From Nemertoderma westbladi (Eukaryota; Animalia; Xenacoelomorpha), in the NCBI GenBank assembly GCA_032718475.1, contig JAUCBJ010008828.1:1-64000 (forward strand): 64,000 nt of DNA. Direction: 5' to 3'. The translations under genes and the position numbers were made by a program. Position 1 is the first letter of the stretch; every line of letters begins with the position of its first letter. Of the stretch, positions 5,146 through 57,867 are shown in pieces. The notes below the pieces were generated by a model. That model had not been told where the DNA came from. It saw nothing but the letters and a program-made list of their open reading frames with translations, and ran no database searches.

Positions 5146-5182
5146 GATTCCCATTCCCGCTATAAATAACTCGATTACTCAC

Positions 5183-5319: not shown

Positions 5320-5371
5320 CTGGGGAATAAAGAGGAAAACTCACCTTCCCATGTCAATGAGGTAATAATAT

Positions 5372-33895: not shown

Positions 33896-34004
33896 ATGTA
33901 CTATTTTTTTATTTATTTTATTTTGTTTGTGGGAAGGGCGTCTCGCCCTCAATCCCACCCCCCTCAGTCCAAAACTTGGACGACTAAAATATCCTCTAAC
34001 TTTG

Positions 34005-37000
34005 CTAAGGTGCCCCTTCTAATAGACAACATTTACCTACAGCTCTCCTGTAGGTTTTTCTGTCCTTCGCACCTATCTTTCCACCTATCCGCACTTCTAC
34101 CGATCGGACTCTTCCGTCCTCGTCGGAGTAGGTGCCTACAACTCTCGCCAACTGCCACTGGTTGTTGATGATAGTATCATCCGTAACGATTACGAGATCT
34201 CCCTCTCTTAACTCCCTGTTCGGCTTCCTCCACTTGCTTCGCTTATGGAGTGTGGGTAGGTATTCCTCGACCCACCTCCTCCAATACTCTGCGCTTATTG
34301 CTTTAGCGACTTTCCAACTTTGGCGGGAGTGTATGTCATCTGGGTCTACACCCCGCATATCGATGGTCGCTGGCCTTTCCATCAGGAAATGGCTAGGCGT
34401 CAGCACGTCTAATGACTCAGGGTCATCATTCTCCGGATATAGCGGTCTGCTATTAATGATCCCCTCGCACTTCGCAAGTACTGTCCGTAAGACGTCCTCA
34501 GTGACCATGTGGGTGTTCATCAGCTTCGTCATTAGACGCTTTGAACTGCCCACTAGTCTCTCGACGCATCCTAGTGTATGTGGTGCATACGGCGTCCTTC
34601 TCTCCCACTTTACTTGTCGTCGTCTCATGGCTGCCCTGACTTCTTCTCCCTCCAGGATGTCCAAGGCCTCTGCCATCTCACTCTCTGCGCCCACAAAGTT
34701 GGTGCCGTTGTCGCTGTATATCACTGCGATCGTCCCACCTTTGCGGTCCCTAAATCTTTCTAAGGCGTTAATGAACGCTGATGCGGTTGCATCTTGGGCG
34801 AGTTCTATCCCTACCGCCCGCGTATTGTTGCATACGAAGATAATGCCGTAGCGTTTCTCCGTGTGTCGCATCACTTTGATCTTTATCGGCCCGAACATGT
34901 CCACACCGCAATGCGTAAATGGCGGGTCGTGCTGTCTTACCCTACTCGCCGGTAGTGGTGCCATCTCCTGTACGGCTCGCTCCTTCTTCGCTCGTCGGCA
35001 GGTCTGGCACTGCCCCACTACCGCTTTAACCTTCTTCCTTAATTGTTTGACCCAATAGGTCCTCCTTATCTCTGTGAGGGTTCGGTTGGTGCCCCCGTGC
35101 AGTATCGATTTGTGGGAGTCCCATATAATCTGGTGGACTATTGGCGATCCTGTAGGAATGATGATGGGTTTCGGTGGTACCACTATGCTGTTGTTGTATC
35201 CCACCCTAGAATTCATTACTAGAATCCCGTCGTCATTGAGTTGTGGCGACAGCGTAATCAGCTCGCTGTCCCGTCGGATGTGCTGTTGGTTACCGACGCG
35301 TTCCACCTCGTCGCCGTAGTTCTTCCGTTGTTCATAGCGGATCACTGCCTTGGCCGCTCCTTCCAGATCTATGGTTGTCCTGATTTTCTTGTCCTTGCCG
35401 ACTCCCGCAAGGAAATTCCCGAAGGCTCTCCAATACGCCACTAGTTTCTTGGTCTTATACCAACTAGAACTGTAGCTGAGGAGTTTATCCGTTGGGTTAT
35501 CGCACAGTTCCCTTCCTGGTTGCACGTCCCTAATCTCCCTCACCATCTGGGAGTATATCTCTTCTCCCTCTGAATCTCCCTCTTCTCCTTCTGATACTAC
35601 TTCCGAGCCCGGGTCCACCTTCCTCATCGGCGGCCAGGCCTCCCTATCGCTCAGAAATTGTGGCCCATGTTGCCACAATACTTCCTTCTTCAGGAAAGTG
35701 TGGCGTTCCACGCCCCTCGACAGCAAGTCCGCTGGGTTCTCGTCTGTTGGGCAGTAGTGCCACCTTTCCAGTTCTGTGCTCGCCCTTATTTCGTCCACTC
35801 TATTCGCGACGAATATCGGGTATCTCGTCTTTTCGTTGTGTAGCCAACCAAGCACTACCATGGAGTCCGTCCAGTAGTGTGTCTCCACTATGTTGGGAAT
35901 AGTATCCACTAGGTAGGCTGTGGCTCTTACTCCTAGTCTCGCAGCTGTCAATTCTAACTTGGGAACAGATGCTGAATCTGGGGGCGTTGACTTTGCTTTG
36001 CTAAAGGCTAGTCTGGGCCTGTGAGCCCCCTCTCGTTGTACTAAGTAGAGTGCCGCTCCGTACGCTTCCAACGACGCGTCGGAGAACATGTGTAGGTCCA
36101 GATTCGTCATGTTCCCATCCGGGAAATACACCCTTGGCATGTTGTATGTTCCCATCTTCTCCAAGTTTCCTGTCCACTTGCTCCACTGTCTCTTGATTTC
36201 CTCTGGTACCTCTACGTCCCACTCATCTTTCAATTTGTATACTCTCTTGAGTATCTCTTTCCCCGTGACTAATAATGGGGATGCTAGGCCTAGGGGATCG
36301 TATATCCTTGCTATATACGATACATAGCCCCTCTTCGTGTGGATGTCTGCGCCCTCCTGGCTCAGCTGATACTTCAGTTCGTCTGTCTTTCTATCCCACA
36401 CGATTCCCAATGCCTTCTGCTGAGATTCTGTTCTCTTAATCGCCATGTCCTGCCCTTTGGCTGTTGTGGGGTTATCCATGGTCGATTCTGGTTTCCTGTC
36501 CTCTATGGCTTTGATAAATTCTTCCGAACTGGATTGGAATTTGGTCAGGTTAAAGCCGGATCCTTTTAGGATGTCGCGAACCTCGCGCCCTGTATCCAGT
36601 ATCTCCTTAACCGTATTCCCAGACTCCATTCCGTCGTCTACGTAGAAGCCACGTCGAATCATATCGACGGCTCTACCGCTGTATCTATCTTCCTTCCCCT
36701 TTACTGTGTCTCTCACTGCCATAGTCGTCGTAAATGAAGACGACTTGGCCCCCATGTTCTGTACTATCATCTTATATGCTGGTATTATCGGCGGTTCTTC
36801 TTCGCCGTTATACCATAAGAAGCGTTGACTGTCGCTATCTTCTTCCGTTACACGGACTTGGTTGAACATGCCTTCTATGTCACACGTGAAGGCGTGTTTC
36901 CCATTTCGAAATCTAAGTAACACCTCTATGCCCGAATTGTAAATGTTTGGGCCTTCTAACAGGTAGTCGTTTAAGCACTTTCCGTCGGTCTTTGCCGATG

Positions 37001-40000
37001 CGTCGACTACCATCCTTAGTTTACCTTTCTTTGGATCTAAAGCCACGTGCAGTGGCAGGTAATATGTTCTATCCGTGTTCGGCTCGTCGACCGGTAACTC
37101 CACGGCCCATCCTTTCTCGACGTACTTCTTAATCGTCCTGTGGATGTACTCATTCTTCTCGGGGCTCCGTTTTAGTGTTTGTTTCAGCTTGCGGAGTCTC
37201 GTGAACTGTCTGAGCAGTCTTTTAAGCTGCTCCTCTGCTCCCTCATCACCCATTTCCTGCATTGTTCCCGCGAACATGCATCCTGATGTCTCCGACATCC
37301 TAAATGGTATCTTACTCTTGATTGGACCACTCAGCGTCCACCCGAATGGTGTTAATATGGCCACCGGGTCACTCTGCTTGTCTTCGCCGAAGACCGTTTG
37401 CATTCTTTCGTGGGCTGTTGGGCAGTCCATACCTACTATGATGGATACCTTCCTAACGTCCACGTCTGGGATTGAGAAGTCAATGTTGTCCAGGAATTTG
37501 TACTGCTCAACCTCGATGTTGGTTGGTCGCCTGGCATTGATATTAATTGACTCTATCACTTGAATGGGGTCGATTGTTGCCCCATAGTCGCATCCTGGTG
37601 CCACTGCTGCAATTGCGCACCATCCTGTTCTCATCTCCAGGATCTCATCTTTGCTAGAGATGGTTGTTACCGCCATCCTGCTTGGCCTCGTTCTCAATCC
37701 TATCTCCTCGGCCACCCATTCCTCGACTAATGTGAAGGCAGCTCCACTATCAACCAGCATTAGTGTTGTTACTGATCGATTGCCTTCCCCGATCACTCGT
37801 ACTGGTACTACTCCAAGTAGCACCGTTCCTCTCTTCTTCGCCCCTACTGTGCTCGTCGCCATCGTTTGGCCTCTCCTTTGACCAAATTTCATTGGCTTCT
37901 CTTTGCACTCCCTTGCTCTATGTCCACTCATTACACATCGCGAGCAGATTTTATTGCTGAACGCATAATCTATCTGATCTTGCCTAGGTAGCGCCTGCCA
38001 GTACCTGCAGTTCATAGTTTGATGAAGCGCATTTGCGTGTAGCTGACATTTGCTCTTTGGGTCGTAGCCCTCTTTATACAGTGCATTGCGTATCGCAGTT
38101 GCGTTCGTACCAAAGTCCCTACTATTCTTATTGTTTGGGTTTTGCCTATTGGACGTACTGGGGTTATGTTTATTCGTGTTATTATTATTTCCCTGTCCAT
38201 TCCATGATGTTGTCTTATCCTCGGCTAGCTGTGGACTTGCAGTCCCCTGCGTCGCTGCATACGGCAATGATTGCCTAAGTCTCGGTAATGCGTTCGATGT
38301 GTTGTGCTCTGGTTTCGGTCTATGGTAGTCTGTCTTCGGTCCCTTTCCCAGGCTGTCTTCGCTATAGACTGGGTCAGTTATTAGTTCAGCCTCGTAGTTT
38401 AAGAAGTTTGACATTTCTTCTAAACCCGGTTCCGCACCCTTCTTATCTCGAGTAGAGAAGGCGATTTTTCTCCACTTGTTGCGCAGCCAGTTTGGTAGTG
38501 CCTGCGCTATCGTGGTGATGTTGTTGGACGCATTGAGCTCGTACGGCGCGTCTAGCGTCTTCAGCACGATTAGCGCCTTTTCGACTTTGTTAGCGAACGT
38601 CTTAATGCTAACGGGATTATCCTGCAGGCCACCCGATGTTATGCCCCTCAGCGTCTGCCTGATGATCTTGGCCGGGTGCCCGTATTCCCTATCCAGTGCC
38701 CGCCATGCTGTCGTGAAGCCGCCCTCTATTCCTTGATATTGCCTCACGATGTCGTATGCTGGGCCTCCCGTGTACACTTGTAGATACTTTAGGCACTCCG
38801 CCTGCGTCAAGTTTTTTGTTAGTATTTCGTTACTATACATGCGCCGAAACTGTAGATATTCTTCCGGCCTACTCCCATCGAATTTGAATGGTTCCACTGG
38901 TGGTAGCTCGATCCTCGTTTTCAACGCATCGATCAACGTGGCCATCCCCATTGCCTGCGCTTCCAATGGATTCGACGGGTGCTGTATAGTTTCCCCTGTC
39001 TGGTGCGGTTCATCCGTCCTATTTCTCGATCTTCTCTGACTTGGGTATGTCATCGGGGGTAGCGGCCCCCTCCATATCTCCGTGTCACACGACTTATTCT
39101 CATCCAAGGGTCTCGTTGTTCTTGCTCCTATCAGGGTAGATTGTTGATATTGTGATGGGGGAATGTCACCCTGCCCCCCCCCCACCGGTATGTTTGGTAC
39201 TGGGGTTGATGTTAATATGTTGGGGCCCATGCACCTATCCGCAATAATTCCCCCCTCCCCTGGGTATATGTTATGTCCCTGCATGCTGTAGTCATACTGC
39301 TGTGCTGGTACCGGTATAGGCCTATCAGCTTCTGGCCTACCCGCCGGTATGTATTCCGCGACTTCCGGGTTTAATCCCGTTGTCCACGCTATCCTATCGC
39401 CTACATTGCCCCTCTCAGTATGGCCTATGGTATGTGCAGTAAGGCCTACAGTATGTCCTACAGTCTGCATGTGTTGTTCGGGATCGAAGTTTATTCTTCT
39501 CGAATAATCCTCCCCGCGGCTACCGTATTCTCGATCGGTAGGTATATCCCGTCGGAAAGTTTCTCTTCGACCCCCCTCTCTACTGTTCTCATCTTCGTAC
39601 CGGTACATCGCGTACCCCTCTCTCGGCGCGTAGTGCGCCTCGCCGGGTCGCATCCCTCCGGGGCGACGGCAATCTCCCGGAGTCCGACCCCACTGACTCT
39701 CCGTTCTCATCTCGACTATCGACGGCTCGCTATCCGTCCTCGCTCTTCTATCGTTCGCGGCGATACTTCTACTACTGTCTTCCTTTCTTCTCCTATCAGT
39801 GGAATATTCCCGCTCGTGAGATCTCTCGTCGACCTCCCGGTTAAACCCCACTGTTCTTCTTCCTTCCTCTGATCGGGCTCGACGCTTCATCCGCCCTCTC
39901 GCGACGTCAACCCGGCTCTCTCTGCTCGGTTGCACGCCGCTGGGGATATCCGCAATCCCCCTATTACTTTCCGTCGCCGGTTGTTGCGGTTTACCTATTT

Positions 40001-40793
40001 CGGCCCTCGCATTATCCACTGACGGCTGTGGGACACTCTCTGCACCCCCCCTTTCGCCGCTAACTTGCTGTTGTGGGGTTCTCGTAGCCCCCCCCCAATC
40101 GCCACATCTAACTTCGCTACTCCTCACCTCGCTACTATATCCCTCTCCAGTCGACACATCAACCCTACCGCGGTCGGGTCTATTCACCCCCGCTTCTCCT
40201 CCTGCTATTGCGTGGCCTTCCAGGCCCTCTACTCCCTGTCTACCAACTACGTGGCCTACCAGGCCCTCTGCTCCCTGCCTACCAACTACGTGGCCTACCA
40301 GGCCCTCTGCTCCCTGCCTACCAACTACGTGGCCTACCAGGCCCTCATCTGCCTGGCCATATACGCCCGACGCGTTTACATTAATAGCACCCGTATTGGA
40401 AACAGAATTAATTTGTCCGTTTGAAATAAAATCACTTGGATTATCTTGCGCGACTACACTATCTGAATTATTTTGTAAATTCGGGCTCGCTGAATTATTT
40501 AAGTTATTTAGATTATTTTGTGTTATTGCATTACTTAAATTATTTTCTAAGTTCGAATTTCGGTTATTACTTTGATTAATTGGATTATTTTGCGTAGCTA
40601 CATTAACATTAGAATTATTTTCTACACTAATATTAGGAATGTTCTTATTTAAATTTAAATTACTACCACTAGGTAAAGTATTGCCTGCAATAAAGGTTTG
40701 ATTAGAATTGTCCCATACGGTACTATTAATATTAACCACGTCTACTGTACCATTATCATTATTACCCCCCCCCCCCCGCCCGTACGGTCGCAC
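34005..40793 (-). CDS. BEL/Pao Gag-Pol polyprotein (gag, aspartic protease, RT, RNase H, integrase)
   Basis: PFKFDGS...LKYLQVYTGGPA (BEL gag), CSRCVMSGHRAREC, LVDSGA, YYLPLH/VVDAS/DIEGMFNQV/FYVDD, FSDASLEAYG/PKLEL/WTDS/NPADLLSRG, H..ILH...CQTC, GVDMFGP, SDNGTNF, ERLV, W.LARV. Confidence 0.95.
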   Translation of the reverse strand: MRPYGRGGGGNNDNGTVDVVNINSTVWDNSNQTFIAGNTLPSGSNLNLNKNIPNISVENNSNVNVATQNNPINQSNNRNSNLENNLSNAITQNNLNNLNNSASPNLQNNSDSVVAQDNPSDFISNGQINSVSNTGAINVNASGVYGQADEGLVGHVVGRQGAEGLVGHVVGRQGAEGLVGHVVGRQGVEGLEGHAIAGGEAGVNRPDRGRVDVSTGEGYSSEVRSSEVRCGDWGGATRTPQQQVSGERGGAESVPQPSVDNARAEIGKPQQPATESNRGIADIPSGVQPSRESRVDVARGRMKRRARSEEGRRTVGFNREVDERSHEREYSTDRRRKEDSSRSIAANDRRARTDSEPSIVEMRTESQWGRTPGDCRRPGGMRPGEAHYAPREGYAMYRYEDENSREGGRRETFRRDIPTDREYGSRGEDYSRRINFDPEQHMQTVGHTVGLTAHTIGHTERGNVGDRIAWTTGLNPEVAEYIPAGRPEADRPIPVPAQQYDYSMQGHNIYPGEGGIIADRCMGPNILTSTPVPNIPVGGGQGDIPPSQYQQSTLIGARTTRPLDENKSCDTEIWRGPLPPMTYPSQRRSRNRTDEPHQTGETIQHPSNPLEAQAMGMATLIDALKTRIELPPVEPFKFDGSRPEEYLQFRRMYSNEILTKNLTQAECLKYLQVYTGGPAYDIVRQYQGIEGGFTTAWRALDREYGHPAKIIRQTLRGITSGGLQDNPVSIKTFANKVEKALIVLKTLDAPYELNASNNITTIAQALPNWLRNKWRKIAFSTRDKKGAEPGLEEMSNFLNYEAELITDPVYSEDSLGKGPKTDYHRPKPEHNTSNALPRLRQSLPYAATQGTASPQLAEDKTTSWNGQGNNNNTNKHNPSTSNRQNPNNKNSRDFGTNATAIRNALYKEGYDPKSKCQLHANALHQTMNCRYWQALPRQDQIDYAFSNKICSRCVMSGHRARECKEKPMKFGQRRGQTMATSTVGAKKRGTVLLGVVPVRVIGEGNRSVTTLMLVDSGAAFTLVEEWVAEEIGLRTRPSRMAVTTISSKDEILEMRTGWCAIAAVAPGCDYGATIDPIQVIESININARRPTNIEVEQYKFLDNIDFSIPDVDVRKVSIIVGMDCPTAHERMQTVFGEDKQSDPVAILTPFGWTLSGPIKSKIPFRMSETSGCMFAGTMQEMGDEGAEEQLKRLLRQFTRLRKLKQTLKRSPEKNEYIHRTIKKYVEKGWAVELPVDEPNTDRTYYLPLHVALDPKKGKLRMVVDASAKTDGKCLNDYLLEGPNIYNSGIEVLLRFRNGKHAFTCDIEGMFNQVRVTEEDSDSQRFLWYNGEEEPPIIPAYKMIVQNMGAKSSSFTTTMAVRDTVKGKEDRYSGRAVDMIRRGFYVDDGMESGNTVKEILDTGREVRDILKGSGFNLTKFQSSSEEFIKAIEDRKPESTMDNPTTAKGQDMAIKRTESQQKALGIVWDRKTDELKYQLSQEGADIHTKRGYVSYIARIYDPLGLASPLLVTGKEILKRVYKLKDEWDVEVPEEIKRQWSKWTGNLEKMGTYNMPRVYFPDGNMTNLDLHMFSDASLEAYGAALYLVQREGAHRPRLAFSKAKSTPPDSASVPKLELTAARLGVRATAYLVDTIPNIVETHYWTDSMVVLGWLHNEKTRYPIFVANRVDEIRASTELERWHYCPTDENPADLLSRGVERHTFLKKEVLWQHGPQFLSDREAWPPMRKVDPGSEVVSEGEEGDSEGEEIYSQMVREIRDVQPGRELCDNPTDKLLSYSSSWYKTKKLVAYWRAFGNFLAGVGKDKKIRTTIDLEGAAKAVIRYEQRKNYGDEVERVGNQQHIRRDSELITLSPQLNDDGILVMNSRVGYNNSIVVPPKPIIIPTGSPIVHQIIWDSHKSILHGGTNRTLTEIRRTYWVKQLRKKVKAVVGQCQTCRRAKKERAVQEMAPLPASRVRQHDPPFTHCGVDMFGPIKIKVMRHTEKRYGIIFVCNNTRAVGIELAQDATASAFINALERFRDRKGGTIAVIYSDNGTNFVGAESEMAEALDILEGEEVRAAMRRRQVKWERRTPYAPHTLGCVERLVGSSKRLMTKLMNTHMVTEDVLRTVLAKCEGIINSRPLYPENDDPESLDVLTPSHFLMERPATIDMRGVDPDDIHSRQSWKVAKAISAEYWRRWVEEYLPTLHKRSKWRKPNRELREGDLVIVTDDTIINNQWQLARVVGTYSDEDGRVRSVEVRIGGKIGAKDRKTYRRAVGKCCLLEGAP

Positions 40794-42375
40794 CAGTTTT
40801 GAGTCTGTCGTGCGGTCCCTGTCAGTGGGGTATCAATAAATGTATCTACGGCCCCCGGCTCCCCAAAAATACTCGAGCCGGCCCCGCTTTCAGACGGCGA
40901 CGCTCGCACCAGTTGCAGCTCGTGCGCCCGTCTAATCTTATCTTCCGCAAGCACACTCTGGCGTCTCTTTAATTCCTTGTGCTCTCGTTCAGCCTCTGCC
41001 ATTCTCCTCTCACACTCCTGGGTGTCCCGGGCGGCCGACTCCGCTACACTCCTAATGCTCTCCCTTCGTCTCACCTCGCGCTCCTTGCGTTCCTTTTCCC
41101 TTCTCGCCTCATGTTCCTTGCGTTCCTTTTCCCTTCTCGCCTCATGTTCCTTGCGTTCCTTTTCCCTTCTCGCCTCATGTTCCTTGCGTTCCTTTTCCCT
41201 CCTCGCCTCATGTTCCTTGTGTTCCGCCTCACGCTCTTTGCGTTCCCTATCCTCCCTCGCCTCACGCTCCCTACACTCCTTTTCCTCTATTTCCTCACAC
41301 TCCCTAAGGCTTCTCAAAGCCCTTTCGGCCCTCTCTCCGGTTTCTCTAATCAATGCCGCTTCCCTCGCTAACCGCACTCTCCCCTCCTCTAACCGTTCCT
41401 CCATTTCCCTCTGACCTTGTTCTACCATGTTGAGACGGTATGCGGCACCTATCTCTCTCACCACTCTTTCTTTCGCGGAGGATGTAGCAGACTTATCGGT
41501 TACGACGGACCCCCTCCGCCTTCCCGACCTACTAACTTTCCCCCGCCTCCCGGAACTTTCTCCGACCGACGAGCTGAATCCTCGGGGTTAACCTCGGATT
41601 CGCCCCCCTCGGGTCCCCTCCAACCCACTAATTTTACTCCCCGGGCATCGACCAAGTATGGCCCTATGTACACTGGCGCTACGCTAGGTTCCATACTCCC
41701 ACACTCCCATAGTTCAAACAGTTCGCCGGCAACCCCTTTTGCTCTCTCCTCGGCTAGTTCTCTCTGCCCAAAACGTATTAGGTAATTAAAGTGTCTATCC
41801 GACTCACCTAGTCGCTTTCTCAGTCTCACCTCGTCTACCTTCGCCCCTTCCTTCTTGGCGTCCTTCATTAGCTTCCGGGTCGCGTTGTAGGCCCGTCGAA
41901 GTCGCTCTGAAACCCCGACGTCCTCGTCGCCGACCTCTCCTCCGTCCCTCCGGGTTCGACGTCGTACCGGCGGCTCCACCGTCGCCGTTCCGGTGGGCCG
42001 TCCGTCGCCCTCGGCCTGTAGCTGGCCGGCGACATCGGTACCGATGTCTCCTCCGTCTCTCTGCGTCCGGGGCCGCACCGTCGGCCCCACCGTCGCCGTT
42101 TCGGCGGGCCGCTCGTCGCCCTCGGCCTGTGGCTGGCCGGCGACACCGGTGCGTCGACCCCCGTCCCGTGTCGACTCGTCTCCGTCTCCCTCCGTCCCGC
42201 TCTCTCTTTCTCTCGGTTCGACCTCGGGTTCCAGGCCCCCCTCGTCCTGAACTGCCGGATGACCCGTTACCGATGGGTCCGGCGTTGTGGGCCTGTATCG
42301 CCTGGTTGCGGCCTCGCGGATCGTTAGGTCTTCGTCCGGGGTCCGCGTCGGTGTCGTGTCACCTGACTGACTCAT
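40742..42375 (-). CDS. N-terminal gag extension of BEL element 1 in two fragments (42375-41500, 41464-40742), each offset -1 from the next
   Basis: ATG at 42375, 66 nt after the LTR. Charged/coiled-coil sequence with KERKEHEARRE repeats. The second break lies over a 13-nt G run (40765-40777). Confidence 0.65.
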
Positions 42376-42441
42376 CCTCTTCTGCAGATTTCGGTGGCTA
42401 GTGGTTGAGTTTTATCTGGGGCGGCAGCTGGTTTTAGTTAC

Positions 42442-42971
42442 TGTGACGGGATCCAGGAGGGATCCCGATTTATCCGGTATTTTAGTTTACGCGTCCCCGC
42501 CGTGTATAAAGAGTAAACGAAACAGTGAATGAGTTCTGATGTTCGGTGTATAATAACTGATGGGTATAAGATATAGATATAGATATGTGGAAGGCGGGAT
42601 ACGGTAACTAAAAGTCCCGTGCTCCCCTATCTAAACTAACTAACCTATGCTAGCACTACTGCACTTGAGATAACTGAATTACTGATTAATAGGTTACTGA
42701 TTATATTGCACGGTTGGCCTAATTACTACCTAATCGATGCCTTGCCCCCCTCTGATTGGTTGATACCCTTGTTGGCGCCCCGTGGAGTGTTCCCGTTCAC
42801 TCCACCTGTACTCTCTGGGTTAGGGGTTTGGCCCCTGACCCTTTATTGTGTGCTTCCTTCCCACTCTTATTGGGATGGCACGAGTTGGTTAATTGCCCAA
42901 TCTCGTGGCTCCCAATATTGCTTATCGGCTTATAACTTTATGGGGTGTTAGCGGGATTGAATAAGCTAACA
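42442..42971 (-). repeat. 5' LTR of BEL/Pao element 1
   Basis: Sense TGTTAGC...CCGTCACA, followed by GTAACTAAAA rather than a TGG-type PBS. Confidence 0.97.
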
Positions 42972-45756
42972 CATATTATCTTATGTCAGGGCCCCAACCG
43001 CAGGTTATCGTGTTCGGAGAACCCGATTCTGTGCTCGGCCACGGAACTAGTCTTGCGCACGCCTTTATCTATCATCAGCCTTCGACAGGGTTAACTTCTC
43101 AAGATTAAACAGTATCCTATGGAATCAAACCTAAAGGTTGTAGGGTACCCCAACAATTAAAAAAAAGATTCTTATGACATACTTCCTATCAGGCTCGTTA
43201 TACCTCTGTGTAAGAAAAATACAGCAGGAAAACCGTATTCCTATAGAACTTGGATTATGACAGGGAAGTTGGCTATCACTGTTCTTCAGTAACGTCTATA
43301 TCGCATAACTATTCGATTACAAAGTTAACAGTAATTATTGAGTTCATGTGGGAAGCCTTTTATTCGGTATAATTAGTTATGGGGATGATATCATATTGTA
43401 ATCGCTAATCTCAAGACAGACGACAGCTCAGTCAGTCAGCAAGAAAGTCAATAGCTACTATGTGTTATACTTACTTAATAACTTAATCTTATAAAACAAA
43501 AGGACTCACTATCTTCTCATAAATAAAAAAGGGCGCAGTGCAACTGATATAATGTCTATGGGTTCCAGGGCATAAAATCACCCATAGATTTATTTTGGAA
43601 ATGTTTGTCCAGGTCGCGAGCGAGGCAGGTGTGGTAGAAGTAGATAGGTACATTTATACAACTGTCTTCAAACGAAATTGCTTTGAGATATTCCAGTCAA
43701 CTGACGAAGACAAATCCAACGATTATATATACAAGAATATTTGAACAATCACAATTATTGACAACCCACAAATTATTGAACAACCAGGAGCCATAAACAA
43801 GAACCAGGTTAAGAAAGATAGAAAATCTTAAAGTGGCCGACTACATCAGCCATGAGAAGTACGTGCAAGGTAAAATTGAAGCATCACAAACTGCTCACAT
43901 AAAGCAACAGTCAATACTCTTGCCTTACAAAATTAGCTATCTGGAAGGGAATATTGTGCTAAGGGGCGCCTAATAGCTGATAGTCCTGAAGAACATGTTT
44001 GGAATTGGACATATAGAACCAAGAAGTCCACCAGAATTAAAGTGATTTATACATAAACTAAACTACGAGATGATAGTGTCGTATAAATTTAATTAAAGTT
44101 CTTCCTTTATATTACTCTATCTACCTTATCATATTCGCTGTACTGCATAATTTTATTAATTTAGAGTAGAGGGATATGAGAGAATGTTGGACGTTATAAT
44201 TCCATCATAGTTGTTGTAGCTATTGATTCGGTCTTCAAGAAATCCCGTGTATATTGGTATCTGACTACAGTGTTCTATAGAAGCTGTAGATAAACTCAGC
44301 ATGATACGAATAACATATAGATAGCACGCTATGAACGACCAAATGTGTTGGATTAAATATATAATTATGTAAAAATAACATTTCGTACCATTCATTTATT
44401 TTTGAAACTGAGTGAGAGTGCATAATGTAGTTATCCCTAGGTCTAGCGAAGATGTTTTTGAGAAACAAAAATATGAAGATATTTTCGTAACAAAAACTGT
44501 AAATATTGTTTCAATATTCTGAATCCGGTGTAAAATTTGATTAGACGGACTACTGAAGCCACAATTGTCGCTTCATTTACTCATTGAGAACTTTAAACCT
44601 CAGAATTACACCTCAGAAGTATTTATTTTGAGTAAAATACCGGTTAAATTTCTTTAGAAATTGTCGTTTCATTATTGATTATAAATTTAGGATATTATAT
44701 ATAAATTATATATATTTTTTAAGAGAATCAGCACCCCATAGCGGGGTAAATATATTCTTATTGTTACTGCACAAAACTGAATTGATAAGGATATTGGAAA
44801 CAGCAGTAACACAGTAATAATACCATATATGTACGGTGCATTATAAAGTTAATAAAATAATTTAGAGTAAAAGGCCATGCAATAAAGTTATTAAAGATTA
44901 TTATTTATAAATATATTAAATAACAACAAAAGAAGATTATTGTTTGTTTTATTGCATGCTCATGCAGCTAGAATTATATTTAATTTTAAATTAAATGCGG
45001 GGGGGGGGGGGGGTGGCGGGGGGTGTACACAATTTTTGGACAACTCTTCGATTTATCACTCCCAGCGTTTCAAATATTTTTGGTTTTGGCTATAATTTGG
45101 AATAAAGTTACCTAAGATGCTATTCTACATTGATAGCTCAGAAAAATTTTATTTTTGGCTATTTAATATTATTTAAAGCTACAGTTAACAATGAAAAAAC
45201 GTGGTTGATAAGATGAGTTTTTTTATAAATAGTATTAAATGTTATTAACTAAAAATTTCAAAAGGTTGTCTATACTTTTATGCAGGGTTGCTATGTAGAC
45301 AGACATTTGTAGAAGTAGTAGGGTTATGAAGTTGACAATTTCCCAAAAAAATATTTGGCGATAATAGATCGTTCATTATGCATAGTAATAGTAATTTCAA
45401 TAGGTCTCCCTAAATGTAAATTGTTATAATTTGAAAAAGTAAAAGAGCTATTAAATACCCCCCCCCCCCCCCCCCCCCCCCACCCCCCTTAATTAGTTAT
45501 AACTTAGTATGGAATGGTGATATAGAATTACAATGAATTGCAGAAGTTACCAGAATTACAGAAGCCACCTGGACTAACAAATATATATAATAACATCATT
45601 GTAAAAAATAATATTGTTTAATTTAATTCTTCAACATTTTAACTGGTAAATTTGTATCAAATAATAACATCGATCTACACAACCTCGCTACTAACTAACT
45701 ACTAACTACTAACATCGATTTAATCAACTTCCATGGATAATGAGTGATTCATTAAA

Positions 45757-46463
45757 ATGATAATCATTATTGTTCTGCTTGTTACATTCCACACGGTAGC
45801 CACTCAGCTGAGTAACAACACAACCTCGCAGAAGACCACCACTGGTACACAACTCAGAATACCGGTCACACATGCCCCGAAGGTAGAAATTGGACACTGT
45901 CCTCAAAAAACATCGAGTTGCAAGAGATTTATGAAGCCAGGCTGCATAAGTTTATGAAAGCCAACGATTTAATTAAACCGGTTATCGACTGGTATGGCTG
46001 CCACACTTGTTCACTCATATCTGTGGTATTCAGTGCGTGGTCCGCTGAATACAAGGCTGATATTACATTCGAAGTAGAAGATTCATGGTGCTACTATGAA
46101 GAATATAAAGGCAACTGTCTACCTATGCCTGAAACAGGTTGTCTCTATTTTGCGAACGTGGTACTTCCAGAACATAAACCTGACCCAGACGACCCAAATG
46201 CTGTGAATCTCTTTGGGTTGATATCATATTACAACTACCTCCAGCTGGCACTCACTGTAACACACGAGACTTGCCAGTCTCAGTGCTGCAACGATGCGGC
46301 TTGCCCAGCTCCCGTATGGACTCACGAGAAAACCTCTACATCAGAAACCACTACCGAATACGTGCCGTTCACCTGGGGAAACGGATCGGCTAATGTCAAC
46401 CAAATGGTGACGTCTCATCTGGCTTGGGTCATCATTGTTGCCATAGTTCTCAGAGCGTTCTAG
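45757..46463 (+). CDS. Secreted, probably GPI-anchored Ly6/uPAR (quiver-like) cysteine-rich protein, copy 1; split over two frames (-1)
   Basis: Signal-like MIIIIVLLVTFHTVATQ, CHTC start, CQSQCCN end motif, Thr-rich stalk, GNGS plus hydrophobic tail, AATAAA at ~46494. Confidence 0.7.
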
Positions 46464-46691
46464 AATATAGGCCTAACTGAAGCTAAAACTTCAATAAATA
46501 AACAATCCATTTGGATCCACATATTCTAGGAACAAAAACCGTCTAGAAATCACTTCTAGAAATATTTATCGGAAATTCTTTATGGTGATTGATTCCAATT
46601 TCAAAGGTTGTGGGTTCGATTTATTATCCGGCAAAATTATGTTTATTATATATCTTCAATAATTATTTCAGGGGGGGGGGGGGGGGGGGGG

Positions 46692-48061
46692 GGTAGCACC
46701 CCCAAACAGAACCTCACATTTTGTTATCTCTGAACCCTAAAATTGGATGAAAATTATTTTTTGTGATACTAAACATCGTCTGGGGTGAAGTTTATGAATA
46801 GCCAAAGGAAATATTTTTAATCTGGCCTCAAAATGGCACTGCAATTGTGCCAAAAGTGCCTTTTGCGCCAAACACAATTTCAGAATATAAGTTCAGAAGA
46901 ATCCTGCAACCAATTCTTATATTTTTGGCCCTTTGATCTAAAGAGGCTCCGGAGCGTTTGAGGCAAAATTTCTTCAGAATTTATTGTCAAAGGTATTCTG
47001 AATAAGTGTACCAAATTTCAACTCATTTATAGTTTTAGGAACAATTTTCACATTTTTATTTAGTCAACAATAACGAAATTTTTCATCATTGCTAAAAATA
47101 TATCTAATAAAACAACTTTGTAGTATTTTTAGTCATATACAGTATGTACCGTGAGAGCCTTTTTGATGAAAAGGACCTTATTCAATTGTAATAACTATTT
47201 ACATCATTGTGTGTAAAGTAGCACTTTGCAGCGTTATGACCCGAGTTAATTTATGTACCGAGCGAGCGCAGCGCGGGAGGTTTACATAAATAACCAAGGG
47301 TCTTTAACGCTGAAAAGTGACCTTTGCAAGCAATTATGTATGTAATTTTGTTACATTATGTCAACTTATCACCGTTCGGTATTTGAAGAAAAGATTTTAA
47401 GGATACTCATTTATACATTTTAATCATGTACTATATCGAATATAAGTTAAATTTATTAACAGGTGCACTGGTACACAGTATTAATTATACATTTAAATCT
47501 AATTAAAGTTTATTGGAAGTTATCTCCTGCATGGATGTGATAAATCATTAATCCATCTTGACTATAGTCGACTGTAGCAAACTTAGTCACCGTCTTGTGT
47601 CCGTTCAGTTTTACTGAACACTGTCGTCACTTTCTTTCCTATTTTACTGTCTTCTATTGGACGTTTCGGCATAATGGAAAACAATATACTTTAAACAATT
47701 ATTTTTACATACAGTAGCTAGTCCTGTAGTCCCTTCACTGCCAACTGGATAATAAAGCAGCACTCATTAACATAAATGGAAATAAAAAATTCTGGAAAAC
47801 GGTAATGTTGTTTCCATGTCATTGATTACTTTGCAGCGTTACGAGAAATTCACCAGAACGCTGTAAAGTTGACATAAATGTAACAAAATATCGTGCTGCT
47901 AGAAGGCTTTTCAAAAATCAGACTAGCTCTTACGTTTTGGGTAATAACTTGAGTTTGAGAAACGATATGAGAAAACTGCTTGAGATTTGAAATCTCCATT
48001 AAATTCTGCACATAATAGGATTCAAAAATGTCGAAAATTATCGAATTAGGGGGGTGCTACC
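46692..48061. mobile_element. Non-autonomous DNA transposon with GGTAGCACCCCC...GGGGGTGCTACC ends and a nested MITE-like insert (~47200-47885); duplicated at ~55285-56590
   Basis: 12-bp terminal inverted match, no ORF, internal inverted CTTTGCAGCGTT/AACGCTG blocks. Confidence 0.55.
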
Positions 48062-48449
48062 ATGACCTACTACACCAACTGTATTATCACAATTCTGTTG
48101 GGCACAGCTTTGCAAAGTCGGCAATGACGTCCATGTGGGATCGAACTGGTGACCTTAGAGTTGGAAGTCTGACGCTCTAGTCTCTTTCCAACGACATGTT
48201 ATAGTAGGTCATCGTGCTACCTCCCCTCCCTCTCTTAAGTATTTAGCATAAACTCTCTAATAATAACTCAAATTTTCCGAAGCACACCCATTACGGTTCG
48301 CTGTTAACTCAGTACACATCCTTTATACTTTCCAATAAGGTTTCTCTAATTATTCAATCAATTTTGTTGATATTAAACATTCTCATTTAGCGATATTCTA
48401 TATTACTTTTCATTATGTTATGTTAATATCCCATTATTTACTTAATTAA

Positions 48450-49398
48450 TGTGACGGGATCCTGGTTGGCCTGGGATGCCCCCCCCCCCCCCCCTTTTTT
48501 TTTTTTACTTAGTGGTGCCTTTCCTACTTGCTGCCGCTCTAGAAGACTGACTGGCCGTAGGCCTGATAAAACTAGAGTTATGAGATTGCCGATAATATTA
48601 TAATAGTCTCAATAGTGTAGTTTACCGGTACAATATACTGTAGCACAAAGTCAGTAGTGTGGTATACGACATGCAGTGAAAACGGTTCACCTTCTTTACA
48701 GAGTCAATTGCCAACTGGTTACATAATGCACGTGATCGTTAATATAGGGAAAAATATATTGCCTATCTATCACATCTTTATAGTCCCATTGGCCTGTGGA
48801 TTTAATGTCTTATTATATTAGATATTATACTGTATTATAATACAGTATAAATTAATTAGTATTTTCAGTCTTTTTCGAGGTGATACGAGGTTGATTGCCA
48901 ATCAACCTCGTATCACCCCAATAACCGGGGCGACAAACCCCAAAGGGACACACACAGCGGGGGTCAGAGGTTACACCTCCGGGAGGGAGAGAGTGACAGC
49001 AGCCGGGGGAAACACTCCCAGAGAGATGGGAGGGCGAGAATTGGGTTATTAGCCAATGGGGGGGAGGCATCCACTGAGTAATGTAATACGGCCAACCAGT
49101 GCAATATATTACCAGTTATTGTTCCTCATTTATTTCACTCAGTTAGTCAGTTTAGTTAGGACAGAACGGTGACTTCTATTACCGTCCACTGCCGCCATCA
49201 TTCACTTATACTTTACCGGTACATTATTTCTTCACTCCAACAACTGTGTCTATGCTTATTCTATATCAGTCATATTATTCTATATCAGTCGACAAGATCA
49301 GAACTCTCAATCCAACTATAATAACTCTTTTCACTCACACGGCGGGGACGCGTAAATAGAACCACCGGGATAAATCGGGATTCTCGGATCCCGTCACA
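48450..49398 (+). mobile_element. Solo-LTR-like element related to BEL element 1 LTR (partial second copy at 56957-57307)
   Basis: TGTGACGGGATCC...GGATCCCGTCACA ends. The 3' ~500 bp aligns by eye to the sense strand of the element 1 LTR (GGCCAACC.GTGCAATATA, ACACGGCGGGGACGCGTAAA, GGATAAATCGGGAT). Confidence 0.8.
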
Positions 49399-50140
49399 AA
49401 GTCCAAGAAGTCCACCAGAATTAAAGTGATTTATACATAAACTAAACTACGAGATGATAGTGTCGTATAAATTTAATTAAAGTTCTTCCTTCATATTACT
49501 CTATCTACCTTATCATATTCGCTGTACTGCATAATTTTATTAATTTAGAGTAGAGGGATATGAGAGAATGTTGGACGTTATAATTCCCTCATAGTTGTTG
49601 TATCTATTGATTCGGTCTTCAAGAAATCCCGTGTATAACTACACCGCATTGTATATGTTGGTATCTGACTACAGTGTTCTATAGAAGCTGTAGATACACT
49701 CAGCATGATACGAATAACATTTAGATAGCACACTATGAACGACCCAATGTGTTGGATTAAATATATAATTATGTAACAAATAACATTTAAATCCGGTGTA
49801 AGATTTAATTAGACGGACTACTGGAGCTACAATATGTCGTTTCATTTACTCATTGAGAACTTTAAACCTCAGAATTACACCTCAGAAGTATTTATTTTGA
49901 GTAAAATACCGGTTAAATTTCTTTAGAAATTGTCGTTTCATTATTGATTATAAATTTAAGATATTATATATAAATTAAATACATTTTTTAAGAGAATCAG
50001 CACCCCATAGTGGGGTAAATATATTCTTATTGTTACTGCACAAAACTGAATTGATAAGGATATTGGAAACAGCAATAACACAGTAATAATACCATATCTG
50101 TACGGTGCATTATAAAGTTAATAAAATAATTTAGAGTAAA

Positions 50141-53100
50141 CTACTACTAGGTCGAGCGAACTCGGACAGTGGAAATGAGATCCTTCCAGGCTTCCCGATT
50201 CTCCATAGTTGTCGCAATTTCGTTTCTCTCAAGTTCAGTATCCCTTTCAAGTTGATCTATATATGTTATGGCAGGTCGTCCACGACTACGCTTTCCATGA
50301 GTTGGTTGCCAGAGAAGTAGATCTGGTATGACCTCGTCTTTACTTCGCCAGCAGTGCCCACTGAATCTTAATCTGCGTTCACGGAGGGTGGTTGATACAG
50401 GTGGTATTGTACCATAAAGCTCGGCGTTTGTCATGTGTTGTCTCCAGCTGATGTTTAGGGCTGCCCTTAGTAGTCTTGTGTAGCAACCATCAATTCGTTG
50501 TTCAAGTGATTTAGTCAGTGTCCAGGTCTCACCGCCGTATAAAAATACACTTTCCACTGTGGCTCGAAAGAACTTAGTCTTCAGGTGCCTGGAGAGATCT
50601 GATTTCCAGATGGTATCCATTTTTGATAGAGCTACCCAAGCCTTTGCTTTCCTAACTTCTATGTCCTTTTTGCTACTCTCTATCCATGATCCAAGGTACT
50701 GGAAGTCATCGACCTTCCTTAGTTGATTATTATCAATGGTTGTCAAGTTTCCATCAACATTAAAGGTCATGAATTCGGTCTTGGTAGCATTTATATGTAA
50801 TCCAACCTCCTTAGCAGCCCTCTCCACTTTATTTAGTAGAAGCTGTGCATCTGCTAGCGTATTAGAGAGCAGGGCGATGTCATCCGCAAAGTCGGTGTCT
50901 GTGACTGTAGTTGCCGGATATCTACTACTTCTGCGTTCTTGAAGTGTGAATCCCAGATCTTCACCCTTTGTGGCCGTCCTCATTGCGTAATCCAGCACAA
51001 TTACAAATAGTAATGGTGCTAATGTGTCACCTTGCAGTACGCCAGCCAGGATTGAGAAAAACTCAGTTTCACCATCTGGTGAGAGTACCTGCGCTTCTGT
51101 GTCACAATATAACAATCCAATGCCAGCAACAATTACTTCTGGTATTCCATAAGCTCTTAGGATTTCAAGCATTTTACCTCTATGGATGGAGTCGAATGCC
51201 TTCTTGAAGTCCACAAAAGTCATGACTGCGGGGAGATTCTTTGACTTAATTCCTTCAATCAGTCTCCGTAGTGCAAGTATCTGAGCTATTGTTGATCTAC
51301 TTGGTCGAAATCCGTTTTGGCTCTTACGCAGTAGTTTCTCTATGTGAGGCCTAATCCTATATAGAATCATTTTATTGTATATTTTGGCAGCTACCACAAG
51401 CAGACAGATCCCACGATAGTTTGTTGGTATGCCGAGGTCTCCTTTCTTGGGGAGAGGCTTTAGTTGACCTTTAGTCCAAATTGGTGGTGGCTTTTCCCCT
51501 TTTAACATCCGGTTGCAAACATTCAATAATGGTCTATTTAGCACTCCGGTTTTCCATACCTCCGCTGGGATTTCATCTAATCCACTCGCTTTATTATTGG
51601 ACATGCTTTTAATGCTTCTTTGGAGTTCGGCAGGTGTGAAGTCCCCTGTTTCTATAGGTAGTGTCTTGTCATATATTTTCCTTGTAGGGCTGACCTCGAT
51701 GTTTGGTGGCTGCCCAAGCAAGTTGCTGAAGTGATTTTTCCACTTCCCAACACGTTCTTCAGGACTATCGGCTTTGAGGCGCCCCTTTGCACAACTTTTC
51801 CGACCAGATACCTCATTTACAGTTTGCCAGGTAAGTCTTGATTGTTGCTGTATGTGAGCAGTTGTAATTGCTTCAGTTTTATCCTGTATGTACTTTTCCT
51901 GGCTGATGTTGTAGGCCAATTTAAGATCGTCCTTAGCTTTCTCAACCTTGTTAATGTTTTCGGTTGTTGGTTGTTCGGTTTTAACTTTGTAGGCTATCTT
52001 AAGATCTTCTCTCTTACAAGTAACCTCAGAGTTTTGCCATGGCACATACTGTTTTCGTTTAGGTTTCTGGGGGATATGCCTCTTAGCTGATTCCTTGTGG
52101 GCTGTTATTATATTCTGGTATATTGAATCGGTGGATTGGTCTTCATCCATTGACTGAAGTGCTTCAAAGCGGTTTCGAACTTCTACTGTATAAGCATCCT
52201 TTACAGCATTGTCAGTTCTGAGTTTCTCCCAGTCATAGTTGATTTGCTTGCTTGTCCTGGGTTTGCTGGCTCTCAAACTGAGTCTGATCTCTGCAGTCAC
52301 AATTCTGTGGTCCGAACCAATTAGGTTGAACGAGCTGTATGCCTCGCAGTTGATCATGCTATTTCGCCACTTTTTGTTTATAAGGATGTAATCCAGTTGT
52401 GCTTTGGTTCCATTAGGGTATTGAAAGGTCCATAGCTTCCCCTTACTCTTTTCGAATGTGTTGTTTGTTGGTATCAATTCACATTCTTCCATTAGGTCTA
52501 AAAGTAAGTACCCATTTCTGTTAGAACTGGTGTTATAGGTGTAACCCTTGATGTCTTCTGGGCCAATTTGCGCATTCAGGTCACCAGCAATGACTTTAAC
52601 ATTGTGTTTCGGGATGTCCTTAATAAGTCCAGTCAGTTCTTCATAAAACTTGACTGCTTGTTCTGGCTCTGATGCATTGGTTGGACTGTAGCAACATATA
52701 ACTGTTGTCTTGGGATTCCCATCAAATGTTGCGATCATAACCCTGGAATTTATAGATTCGATGTTGTTTAGGGTCTTAAGTGCAAATGGGCTTAGCAGAA
52801 TTCCTACTCCACCAATTGATGCATTGGCCGAGTTTCTTACTGCTGAGCTTGTTACTAACGTCCATCCATTTCCAATGTCATTGTACTTCATGGCAGTGTC
52901 TTCATGACAAATCCGATGTTCTTGGATGCAGATGATGTCGATGTTATATTCCATTGCCAGAGCGACCATGTCACCCTGTTTGCTCTGTGCTTTCAGCGTG
53001 CGTGCGTTCATTGTAGCAATCTTTAGTGTCTTTTTACATTTCAACAGGTTGGTTCTTCTTTCTTCTCTGTCTTCTGTTCCAGTAGCCAATTTATCGACCC

Positions 53101-53502
53101 CAGCCTGGTGTACCACTGAGGGACGCGGTCCTTGTTGACCCGGGCGACGACCGAGCCGGTATTTCTCCTGGAGGGTTCTCATACTCATATCTTTCAGTTG
53201 CGGGAGTAAACCGCTTGTGGTCGCAACTCCTACAAGCGTCTTCGCAGTAGGCCGCCGTTGGTTGATTACCTTCCGCCGACCTTGTCAGCATGTCTAGCCG
53301 TTGGTTGATTACCTTCCGCCTATTCATGGCCTACAGCCCTGCTGCCGACTGTAGGGGTCCATTTGTTACACCCTGAACCAAGTGTGCCTCCTGGGTTAGG
53401 TTACCTAACACTGGTAGAGGAGCATCCAGTATAGACAGGGCGGGGCTTGTATCATCTCTAATGCAGATGCGTATCAAGCCTTTGCCTTCAATTTTGCCTT
53501 TT
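50141..53502 (-). mobile_element. Full-length RTE-clade LINE with 11-bp TSD
   Basis: TTTAGAGTAAA duplicated at 50130-50140 and 53503-53513. Empty site visible in the paralog at ~44861. (TAG)3 tail. Confidence 0.96.
50147..53188 (-). CDS. RTE ORF: APE endonuclease + reverse transcriptase, intact (1013 aa)
   Basis: ATMNARTL, IQEHR, YSPT, GDLNA, LDYI, SDH; QNGFRP, DFKKAFD, GVLQGDTLAP, DFADD, FQYLGS. Confidence 0.96.
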   Translation of the reverse strand: MSMRTLQEKYRLGRRPGQQGPRPSVVHQAGVDKLATGTEDREERRTNLLKCKKTLKIATMNARTLKAQSKQGDMVALAMEYNIDIICIQEHRICHEDTAMKYNDIGNGWTLVTSSAVRNSANASIGGVGILLSPFALKTLNNIESINSRVMIATFDGNPKTTVICCYSPTNASEPEQAVKFYEELTGLIKDIPKHNVKVIAGDLNAQIGPEDIKGYTYNTSSNRNGYLLLDLMEECELIPTNNTFEKSKGKLWTFQYPNGTKAQLDYILINKKWRNSMINCEAYSSFNLIGSDHRIVTAEIRLSLRASKPRTSKQINYDWEKLRTDNAVKDAYTVEVRNRFEALQSMDEDQSTDSIYQNIITAHKESAKRHIPQKPKRKQYVPWQNSEVTCKREDLKIAYKVKTEQPTTENINKVEKAKDDLKLAYNISQEKYIQDKTEAITTAHIQQQSRLTWQTVNEVSGRKSCAKGRLKADSPEERVGKWKNHFSNLLGQPPNIEVSPTRKIYDKTLPIETGDFTPAELQRSIKSMSNNKASGLDEIPAEVWKTGVLNRPLLNVCNRMLKGEKPPPIWTKGQLKPLPKKGDLGIPTNYRGICLLVVAAKIYNKMILYRIRPHIEKLLRKSQNGFRPSRSTIAQILALRRLIEGIKSKNLPAVMTFVDFKKAFDSIHRGKMLEILRAYGIPEVIVAGIGLLYCDTEAQVLSPDGETEFFSILAGVLQGDTLAPLLFVIVLDYAMRTATKGEDLGFTLQERRSSRYPATTVTDTDFADDIALLSNTLADAQLLLNKVERAAKEVGLHINATKTEFMTFNVDGNLTTIDNNQLRKVDDFQYLGSWIESSKKDIEVRKAKAWVALSKMDTIWKSDLSRHLKTKFFRATVESVFLYGGETWTLTKSLEQRIDGCYTRLLRAALNISWRQHMTNAELYGTIPPVSTTLRERRLRFSGHCWRSKDEVIPDLLLWQPTHGKRSRGRPAITYIDQLERDTELERNEIATTMENREAWKDLISTVRVRST

Positions 53503-54345
53503 TTTAGAGTAAAAGGCCATGCAATAAAGTTATTAAAGATTATTATTTATAAATATATTAAATAACAACAAAAGAAGACTATTGTTTGTTTTATTGCATG
53601 CTCAGGCAGCTAGAATTATATTTAATTTTAAATTAAATGCGGGGGGGGGGGGGGGGGGGGGGTGTACACCATTTTTGGACAACTCTTCGATTTATCACTG
53701 CCAGCGTTTCAAATTTTTTTGGTTTTGGCTATAATTTGGAATAAAGTTACCTAAGATGCTATTCTACATGATAGCTCAGAAAAATTTTATTTTTGGCTAT
53801 TTATATTATTTAAAGCTACAATTAACAATGAAAAAACGTGGTTGCTAAGAGGAGTTTTTTTATAAATAGTATTAAATGTTATTAACTAAAAATTTCAAAA
53901 AGTTGTCTATACTTTTATGCAGGGTTGCTATGTAGACAGACATTTGTAGAAGTAGTAGGGTTATGAAGTTGACAATTTCCCAAAAAAATATTTGGCGATA
54001 ATAGATCGTTCATTATGCATAGTAATAGTAATTTCAATAGGTCTCCCTTAATGGAGATAGCTATAACTTGAAAAAGTAAAAGAGCTATTAAATAGCCCCC
54101 CCCCCCCCGACCCCCCTTAATTAGTTATAACTGAGTATGGAATGGTGATATAGAATTACAATGAATTGCAGAAGTTACCAGAATTACAGAAGCCACCTGG
54201 ACTAACAATTATATAATAACATCATTGTAAAAAATAATATTGTTTAATTTAATTCTTCAACATTTTAACTGGTAAATTTGTATCAAATAATGAACTACTA
54301 ACATCGATTTAATCCACTTCCATGGATAATGAGTGATTCATTAAA

Positions 54346-55052
54346 ATGATAATCATTATTGTTCTGCTTGTTACATTCCACACGGTAGCCACTCAGCTGA
54401 GTAACAACACAACCTCGCAGAAGACCACCACTGGTACACAACTCAGAATACCGGTCACACATGCCCCGAAGGTAGAAATTGGACACTGTCCTCAAAAAAC
54501 ATCGAGTTGCAAGAGATTTATGAAGCCAGGCTGCATAAGTTTATGAAAGCCAACGATTTAATTAAACCGGTTATCGACTGGTATGGCTGCCACACTTGTT
54601 CACTCATATCTGTGGTATTCAGTGCGTGGTCCGCTGAATACAAGGCTGATATTACATTCGAAGTAGAAGATTCATGGTGCTACTATGAAGAATATAAAGG
54701 CAACTGTCTACCTATGCCTGAAACAGGTTGTCTCTATTTTGCGAACGTGGTACTTCCAGAACATAAACCTGACCCAGACGACCCAAATGCTGTGAATCTC
54801 TTTGGGTTGATATCATATTACAACTACCTCCAGCTGGCACTCACTGTAACACACGAGACTTGCCAGTCTCAGTGCTGCAACGATGCGGCTTGCCCAGCTC
54901 CCGTATGGACTCACGAGAAAACCTCTACATCAGAAACCACAACCGAATACGTGCCGTTCACCTGGGGAAACGGATCGGCTAATGTCAACCAAATGGTGAC
55001 GTCTCACCTGGCTTGGGTCATCATTGTTGCCATAGTTCTCAGAGCGTTCTAG
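54346..55052 (+). CDS. Ly6/uPAR-like GPI-anchored protein, copy 2; same frame split
   Basis: Translation identical to copy 1 in both frames. Confidence 0.7.
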
Positions 55053-57307: not shown

Positions 57308-57867
57308 TCGTGGTTGACATGTACCGAACAACAAGAGTCCCACAAGAAATGAAAACAAATAAGTTGGTGCCAGTTCCCAAGCAGGGCAACCTAACACTCT
57401 ATGGTTCTTTTCGGGGAATCTCATTGATCTCGATTGCTGCAAAGCTACACAATAGGATTCTAATAAATGGGGATCCCATTGAGAGACTGCTCCGTGGAAA
57501 TCAGAATGGGTTCCGTAAAGGTCGTGGGACCATGGAGCCCATTTTGGCACTTAGAAGGATAATTGAAGAGTTATCAAAAAAGAAAGACAGCAAGGCCTTT
57601 GATTCAGTCTCTCGCTCACGTATGTTCAGCATACTTTCATTATATGGGATTCCTGATGAATTATTGCAGCAATAAGATCAGTATACGATGGTTCGACAAC
57701 ATTTGTGTCTACTGTTGACGGTGACACAGAACCATTTGAAGTGTTATGGGGCGTCCTCCAAGGAGACACACTTGCACCATTCTTGTTCATTATTGTGGTT
57801 GACTACGTTCTACGCATGTCCTTAGATTATTATAATGATGATGGGGTGATGATAACTCCACCTACTG
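57308..57867 (+). mobile_element. RTE RT fragment (same family as 14203-16563) with internal deletions
   Basis: Near-identical to 14205-14687. Cut at 57867 by the next LTR. Confidence 0.9.

Follow-up and report, generated by a model that had tools for sequence, protein, structure and literature searches.

Priming by an element's own RNA has been described for the Tf1/sushi group of LTR retrotransposons, and Tcn1 and one copia lineage are predicted to use it as well (PMC6317226, in part). In Tf1, the primer-binding site (PBS) lies right after the 5′ LTR and is the complement of ~11 nt of the element's own RNA, from which an RNase H cut yields the primer (accessible portions of PMC7175516, PMC4600332 and PMC10085805). 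As far as such excerpts go, a self-complementary PBS directly after the LTR, accompanied by further leader duplexes, is found in Tf1 and Tf2 of S. pombe, Tj1, Tosmo, and the Tf1/sushi and Tcn1 groups, which are Ty3/gypsy chromoviruses. The plant copia TAR lineage (Houba, Osr-1), for which self-priming is predicted, has the same signature of at least 10 nt starting 0–5 nt after the LTR (PMC6317226, in part).

For the Belpaoviridae, the ICTV profile describes tRNA priming from an 18-nt tRNA-Arg/Gly PBS, complementary to the 3′ end of the host tRNA, and a genome of 4.2–10 kb, and calls BEL/Pao replication poorly understood (PMC8742986). We found no report of BEL/Pao self-priming in the literature searched (subscription journals, Repbase and GyDB entries, and supplements lay outside its scope), and the words primer, PBS and tRNA do not occur in the main text of PMC3118150.

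Here we analyse a stretch of 64,000 nt (the window) of repeat-rich eukaryotic DNA with satellites and LINEs, in which an intact BEL/Pao element and a solo LTR related to it can be compared. Sequence comparison and computed folds lead us to favour, with some reserve, the reading that the solo LTR is related to a BEL/Pao family that likely primes with its own RNA, the primer being held locked by a near-copy of the PBS in U5. Self-priming in BEL/Pao, taken alone, we consider quite likely; what is added here is the primer-locking U5 partner.

An intact BEL/Pao element

Element 1 (E1) is an intact BEL/Pao LTR retrotransposon at 29027-42971 on the minus strand. Its 5′ LTR (42442..42971, minus; 530 nt, TGT..ACA) shows 5 differences from the 3′ LTR (29555-29027, minus), which follows a PPT at 29564-29556, and a 5-nt TSD, ATATG, flanks both ends. 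The 530-nt LTRs and the PPT agree with the BEL/Pao criterion of LTRs of 0.2–1.2 kb with a PPT before the 3′ LTR. A gag-pol ORF of 2275 aa (34005..40832, minus) carries BEL/Pao domains, with Pfam matches to DUF1759, Peptidase_A17, integrase H2C2 and DUF5641 and an Asp protease below the cut-off; the domain order, PR-RT-RH-IN, is of the BEL/Pao type. The translation contains motifs that we take to be RNase H catalytic residues. Its domains are shared by 204 homologues, with identities of 26–39% among the 120 listed; at best 39%, the E1 protein has no close relative among the homologues listed, many of which come from aquatic animals where the source is named.

E1 resembles the Belpaoviridae in LTR size, PPT and gag-pol order, whereas it has no tRNA-type PBS and, at 13.9 kb with its extra ORFs included, lies outside their 4.2–10 kb range. 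Its placement in BEL/Pao is by predicted protein only and departs from the ICTV profile in PBS and genome size. The extra ORFs lie before gag-pol and after the integrase (40742-42411 and 30267-32730, minus) and have no Pfam match in those tested; the downstream ORF, of 622 aa, has several CxxC motifs. A hairpin at 29565-29591 stands directly before the E1 PPT, with an LTR-end-like inverted repeat just upstream (29614-29635). Tandem repeats occupy 1200-7400, 8000-9500 and 33280-33880, with units of 29/36, 25 and ~36 nt, respectively, the last of them within E1.

A self-complementary primer-binding site in E1

There is no TGG, the mark of a tRNA-type PBS, after the E1 5′ LTR, and no tRNA gene within the 64-kb window. 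The 10 nt immediately after the 5′ LTR, GTAACTAAAA (42432..42441, minus), are perfectly complementary to a segment of the LTR itself, P, which reads TTTTAGTTAC on the minus strand and occurs at 42613-42604 and 29198-29189. This 10-nt match at offset 0 was equalled in length in 1 of 300 LTR shuffles, and it has the features by which self-primers are recognized in silico, at least 10 nt of the element's own 5′ LTR starting 0–5 nt after it (PMC6317226, available part).

The E1 PBS is thus placed and built like those of the Tf1/sushi and Tcn1 groups. E1 is not a member of Tf1/sushi, since its Pol is of the BEL/Pao type and has no chromodomain match; judged from its sequence alone, it would work like one. 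Promoter-like motifs suggest that its primer is probably internal, unlike that of Tf1, which is 5′-terminal and consists of the first 11 nt, and a near-copy of the PBS in U5 would compete for the primer. The plant copia TAR lineage differs from E1 in superfamily and host kingdom, and the accessible text on it mentions no locking stem.

A splice-built primer was rejected for E1, where the best candidate is 8 nt, as long in 8 of 100 shuffles, compared with 10 nt unspliced; the corresponding sequence check of the solo LTR found no AG before the primer's end. A GCCGCC in the E1 leader (42420..42425, minus) could pair with the GGCGG arm of U5 and was not chosen in the computed folds; strand exchange between the two is possible.

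The rule is kept in relatives

Scanning metagenomes yielded 79 BEL/Pao loci, from the best 80 of at least 440, with repeated pieces in 34. The 45 loci without an LTR repeat were dropped, L014, L031 and L060 had no convincing LTR end, and L032, L033, L037, L038, L039 and L049 were left out of the analysis. A direct repeat fixes the 5′ LTR end in 13 loci, and 12 of these (11 families) carry a self-complement of 11–15 nt starting 0–4 nt after the LTR; the thirteenth, L073, has TGG. Ten of the 12 self-complements span a GT..AG junction within the LTR (0–2 of 100 shuffles were as long), and two, in L015 and L058, are contiguous. For 11 further loci the choice of LTR end followed the best score, a circular procedure; canonical splice sites are present in 10 of these, and three are consistent with relatives whose ends are fixed. 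Altogether, a PBS complement across an intra-LTR GT..AG was found in L007, L010-13, L018, L021-23, L029, L030, L035, L041, L042, L053, L057, L063, L065 and L069. Most primers predicted for the spliced families end in AC or AT. These relatives would differ from Tf1 in building the primer across a splice junction.

The letters of the self-complementary PBS differ from family to family, and each PBS matches its own LTR. LTR/PBS pairs of at least 10 nt were obtained in 20 of 21 elements when each LTR was matched to its own PBS (10/11 among those with repeat-fixed ends), against 18 of 420 crossed pairs, 12 of which fall among four related families sharing a PBS. The pairing at the PBS position might serve translation, dimerisation or packaging, with priming by an unrecognised host RNA, a tRNA fragment or other. 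In keeping with such a role for host RNA, the ICTV describes the Belpaoviridae as tRNA-primed (PMC8742986), and half-tRNA priming exists in copia lineages (PMC6317226, in part). However, the match begins 0–5 nt past the end of the LTR in all families, with letters that vary between them, and one host RNA would not follow such variation. We therefore regard priming by a host RNA as quite improbable, and self-priming as the better account of these loci.

A quick tree computed with IQ-TREE from 42 RT/RH rows groups E1, on a very long branch (2.91), with L010, L011-13, L015 and L022 (SH-aLRT 97). Every PBS in this group lies at offset 0 and begins with GT, a grouping by offset that was defined after the tree was seen; L071 has offset 0 and falls elsewhere in the tree, and the match in L004 starts at offset 2. 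L047 and L073, the only analysed loci with a TGG-type PBS, lie nearer to insect BEL/Pao proteins. Spliced primers occur throughout the tree and contiguous ones are scattered, a distribution that, in a tree without a root, fits repeated loss of the splice requirement.

A solo LTR of a sister family

LTR2 (48876..49398, plus) is, by alignment to the E1 LTR, a 5′-truncated solo LTR of a sister family of E1. From about position 57 of the E1 LTR to its end, 338 of 422 aligned letters are identical, with 153 gap positions. LTR2 lacks a TG start and a TSD, and no PBS follows it, the next letters being AAGTC; we read it as truncated because upstream of 48884 the family contigs part from the window sequence and look like the E1 U3 instead. 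Its assignment to BEL/Pao would follow from LTR homology to E1. The family is high-copy, with contigs in two studies covering LTR2 tens- to hundreds-fold more deeply than its flanks, a measure that gives no copy number.

Within U3, a near-perfect inverted repeat of 39 nt (48879..48917, plus) has a homologous hairpin with different letters in E1, with energies of −29.7 and −22.8 kcal/mol for LTR2 and E1, respectively. A putative TATA-like box (49099..49109, plus) occurs in E1 too. The 5′ arm of the R-U5 stem (49167..49196, plus) is made up of an outer helix (49167-71), the putative primer P (49174-82) and an inner helix (49183-96). Its 3′ arm (49340..49367, plus) supplies the inner-helix partner (49340-50), the primer partner P′ (49352-61) and the outer-helix partner (49363-67). 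A terminal hairpin of 7 bp and the TCACA end follow (49376..49398, plus).

Matched changes in both arms of the R-U5 stem

The preliminary description had located the two paired motifs of LTR2 correctly, TTCTATTAC at 49174-49182 and GTAAATAGAA at 49352-49361. In E1, the partner of P on the minus strand is P′, GTAAACTAAAA, at 42490-42480 and 29075-29065. Pairwise comparison of E1 and LTR2 bears out the claim that both arms had changed together: a U-A pair has become C-G and one G-C pair has been deleted from both arms, and P:P′ pairing is kept through these changes. A bulged A and a bulged C are retained in both stems, and the outer helix goes from 3 pairs in E1 to 5 in LTR2. The terminal CGGGAT..ATCCCG hairpin is likewise where it was said to be, at 49376-49393 of LTR2. 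The supposed conservation of GCCGCC/GGCGG pairing stands for the invariant 3′ arm, but E1 has TCCCGCC in R, and the 5′ arm re-pairs in a shifted register.

The predicted fold common to both LTRs comprises the outer helix, P:P′, the inner helix, a loop of ~110–140 nt and the terminal hairpin. Pairing of the R arm with the downstream LTR reaches −33.0 kcal/mol in LTR2 (z −6.2, 0/500 shuffles as good) and −29.9 kcal/mol in E1 (z −4.3, 1/500 as good), and folds of the whole region of the two LTRs have z of −2.25 and −2.69. For the primer-sized segment P alone, the pairing is borderline (p 0.074 and 0.042 in the two LTRs). The comparison is one of two independent sequences, E1 and LTR2, which are too few for covariation statistics.

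A near-copy of the PBS in U5 may lock the primer

With the PBS omitted, computed pairing of the primer with the distal LTR is 0.98 in E1, 0.98 in LTR2, 1.00 in L015, 0.92 in L022 and 0.88 in L010, each with 0/40 shuffles as high, and 0.76 in L011 (2/40). Among 11 other families, six reach 0–3/40 shuffles and five do not; the U5 partner is weak or absent in L007, L018, L063, L057 and L071. As modelled, the partner appears strongest in E1's tree group and variable outside it.

With the PBS present, E1 is computed to be locked at 0.93, against 0.04 for P on the PBS, and L015 and L022 are also mostly locked (0.71 and 0.78, respectively); the PBS is preferred in the computed folds of 11 of 12 spliced families and L058. 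Forcing P onto the E1 PBS costs 1.1–2.5 kcal/mol and leaves the inner R-U5 helix and the terminal hairpin in place; around the Tf1 PBS there are three duplexes, arranged as a 'pretzel'. Because the two folds differ by only 1–2.5 kcal/mol, a switch between a locked and a priming state is plausible, and since the computed equilibrium favours the locked fold, priming would need a trigger.

A parallel is the primer activation signal of HIV-1, a priming element that is first base-paired in the leader and needs release, as would the primer here; HIV-1 differs in using a tRNA primer and in masking an enhancer rather than the primer, and a global leader switch has been excluded as its regulator (PMC1865047, in the sections accessible). 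In our relatives, P′ might have been thought to replace the intron in discriminating 5′ from 3′ ends, an idea weakened by the intron-bearing L010, L011 and L022, which have the partner too. The U5 partner is not a simple substitute for the intron, because in L022 and L011 it pairs across the spliced junction.

Self-priming could be real and P:P′ still be an ordinary leader or 3′-end structure, or an inverted repeat matched by template switching, without any regulatory switch. The U3 hairpin, which lies outside the presumed 5′ leader, has also changed in step, so that concerted change is no peculiarity of the priming region; the pairing of P by itself with P′ is borderline, and several self-complementary families lack a strong partner. 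Yet in distant relatives the U5 partner has family-specific letters that resemble each family's own PBS, and E1 and LTR2 retain bulges that templated correction would tend to erase. On this evidence we think a purely structural origin unlikely, though deserving of some weight, and prefer a partner that would hold the primer back.

The expected junction of the LTR2 family

Plus-strand synthesis would copy the primer back into the PBS. For this reason the PBS should track P, and the LTR2 family is therefore expected to carry GTAATAGAA after its 5′ LTR, of which P′ at 49352-61 is a near-copy. Since the PBS would follow P automatically, P:PBS matches bear on the mechanism, whereas P:P′ matches need selection or templated correction. 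The preliminary description had proposed a primer that switches between a U5 partner and the PBS, and had predicted the same junction. The two-state idea is supported by the structure, the E1 PBS, the relatives and the close fold energies; the predicted GTAATAGAA was not seen after LTR ends, following none in the window or in 80 loci.

To produce GTAATAGAA, the E1 junction requires a one-base deletion at 42437. Contigs from two studies (141 and 148 records) were compared with 42375-42478, and this deletion is in 0 of 6 indel rows at the E1 junction, the substitution table being empty. Several contig records run from the LTR end to an E1-type leader with 0–4 other letters, in several variants and both studies, and in one loose contig end the PBS is retained and followed by a diverged leader. 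No tRNA-type PBS occurs among the family contigs listed; with 12 of the 35 loose ends listed, and 16 of the 290 pieces, a diverged LTR2-type or TGG-type junction would hide in clipped ends. Scans with the LTR-end pattern gave no match in viral contigs or metagenomes, and searching viral contigs at the protein level yielded a single weak locus, which was left out.

The same contigs bear on whether the matched changes in LTR2 are chance or private mutations of one decayed copy. Only two independent sequences are compared, the window copy has private letters (e.g. 49161), and in LTR2 family contigs G49359>A makes up 47–71% of depth while the matching change on the other arm, C49176>T, is absent from the rows listed (40 of 89). 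As far as those rows go, this counts against family-wide P:P′ covariation. Set against chance are the arm duplex, at z −6.2, and the depths in three runs: 4660, 4968 and 3192 for the P arm, close to 4139, 4652 and 3413 with G at 49359, and far above single-copy. If A-carrying subfamilies lose the P arm to clipping, the two depths should come out close, and we take this as a rough hint that a C-G subfamily exists in many copies. Chance or decay of a single copy seems to us very improbable, and matched change within a self-priming family remains the reading we follow.

A possible priming pathway

Under this reading, the transcript would start ~30–60 nt before P, and the RNA would first fold P:P′. 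In the particle P would shift to the PBS, with the Gag nucleocapsid probably acting as chaperone, without disturbing the inner R-U5 helix or the terminal hairpin. A cut by RNase H just 3′ of P would follow, and RT would extend from P, as in Tf1. Selection would hold P′ in step with P, as a means of postponing priming in RNA that is being translated and/or of protecting the additional P in the 3′ R against the PBS and against cleavage.

More speculatively, and against what we would expect on balance, a large aquatic BEL/Pao branch might be tRNA-independent and gated by an RNA switch, with an internal self-primer, spliced in most families and contiguous in some; a U5 copy of the PBS would lock this primer, and packaging would set it free. 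The E1 PBS may then have been re-templated from unspliced RNA, because its primer resembles a 3′ splice site followed by the start of an exon (TTTTAG|TTAC), with LTR2 later losing the AG on both arms.

If true, self-priming from an internal primer that the element itself can lock would be a further origin of this mode, in an animal superfamily. It would explain BEL/Pao elements that have no tRNA PBS and free them from tRNA supply, it might allow escape from tRNA-fragment silencing, and it predicts a precise RNA cut site. Within this argument LTR2, as one solo LTR, is a supporting piece.

Surroundings of LTR2

A 949-nt element with inverted ends (48450-49398) was considered and rejected, as it has no TSD and its left end lies within a duplicated block. 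A 12–13-nt reverse-complement copy of the family's LTR end is found at 48450-48462 and again at 56958-56969; the first faces the LTR2 end 949 nt away, beside C and T homopolymers and with no TSD. It may be a remnant of another minus-strand LTR.

LTR2 lies between the two copies of a 4.8-kb block duplicated at ~95% (44019-48797 and 49403-57308). The block holds a cysteine-rich ORF of 215 aa (45816-46463) with a hydrophobic end and no Pfam match. A LINE at 50147-53284 on the minus strand, with an open endonuclease and RT frame of 1045 aa, is inserted in the second copy of the block and flanked by an 11-nt target duplication.
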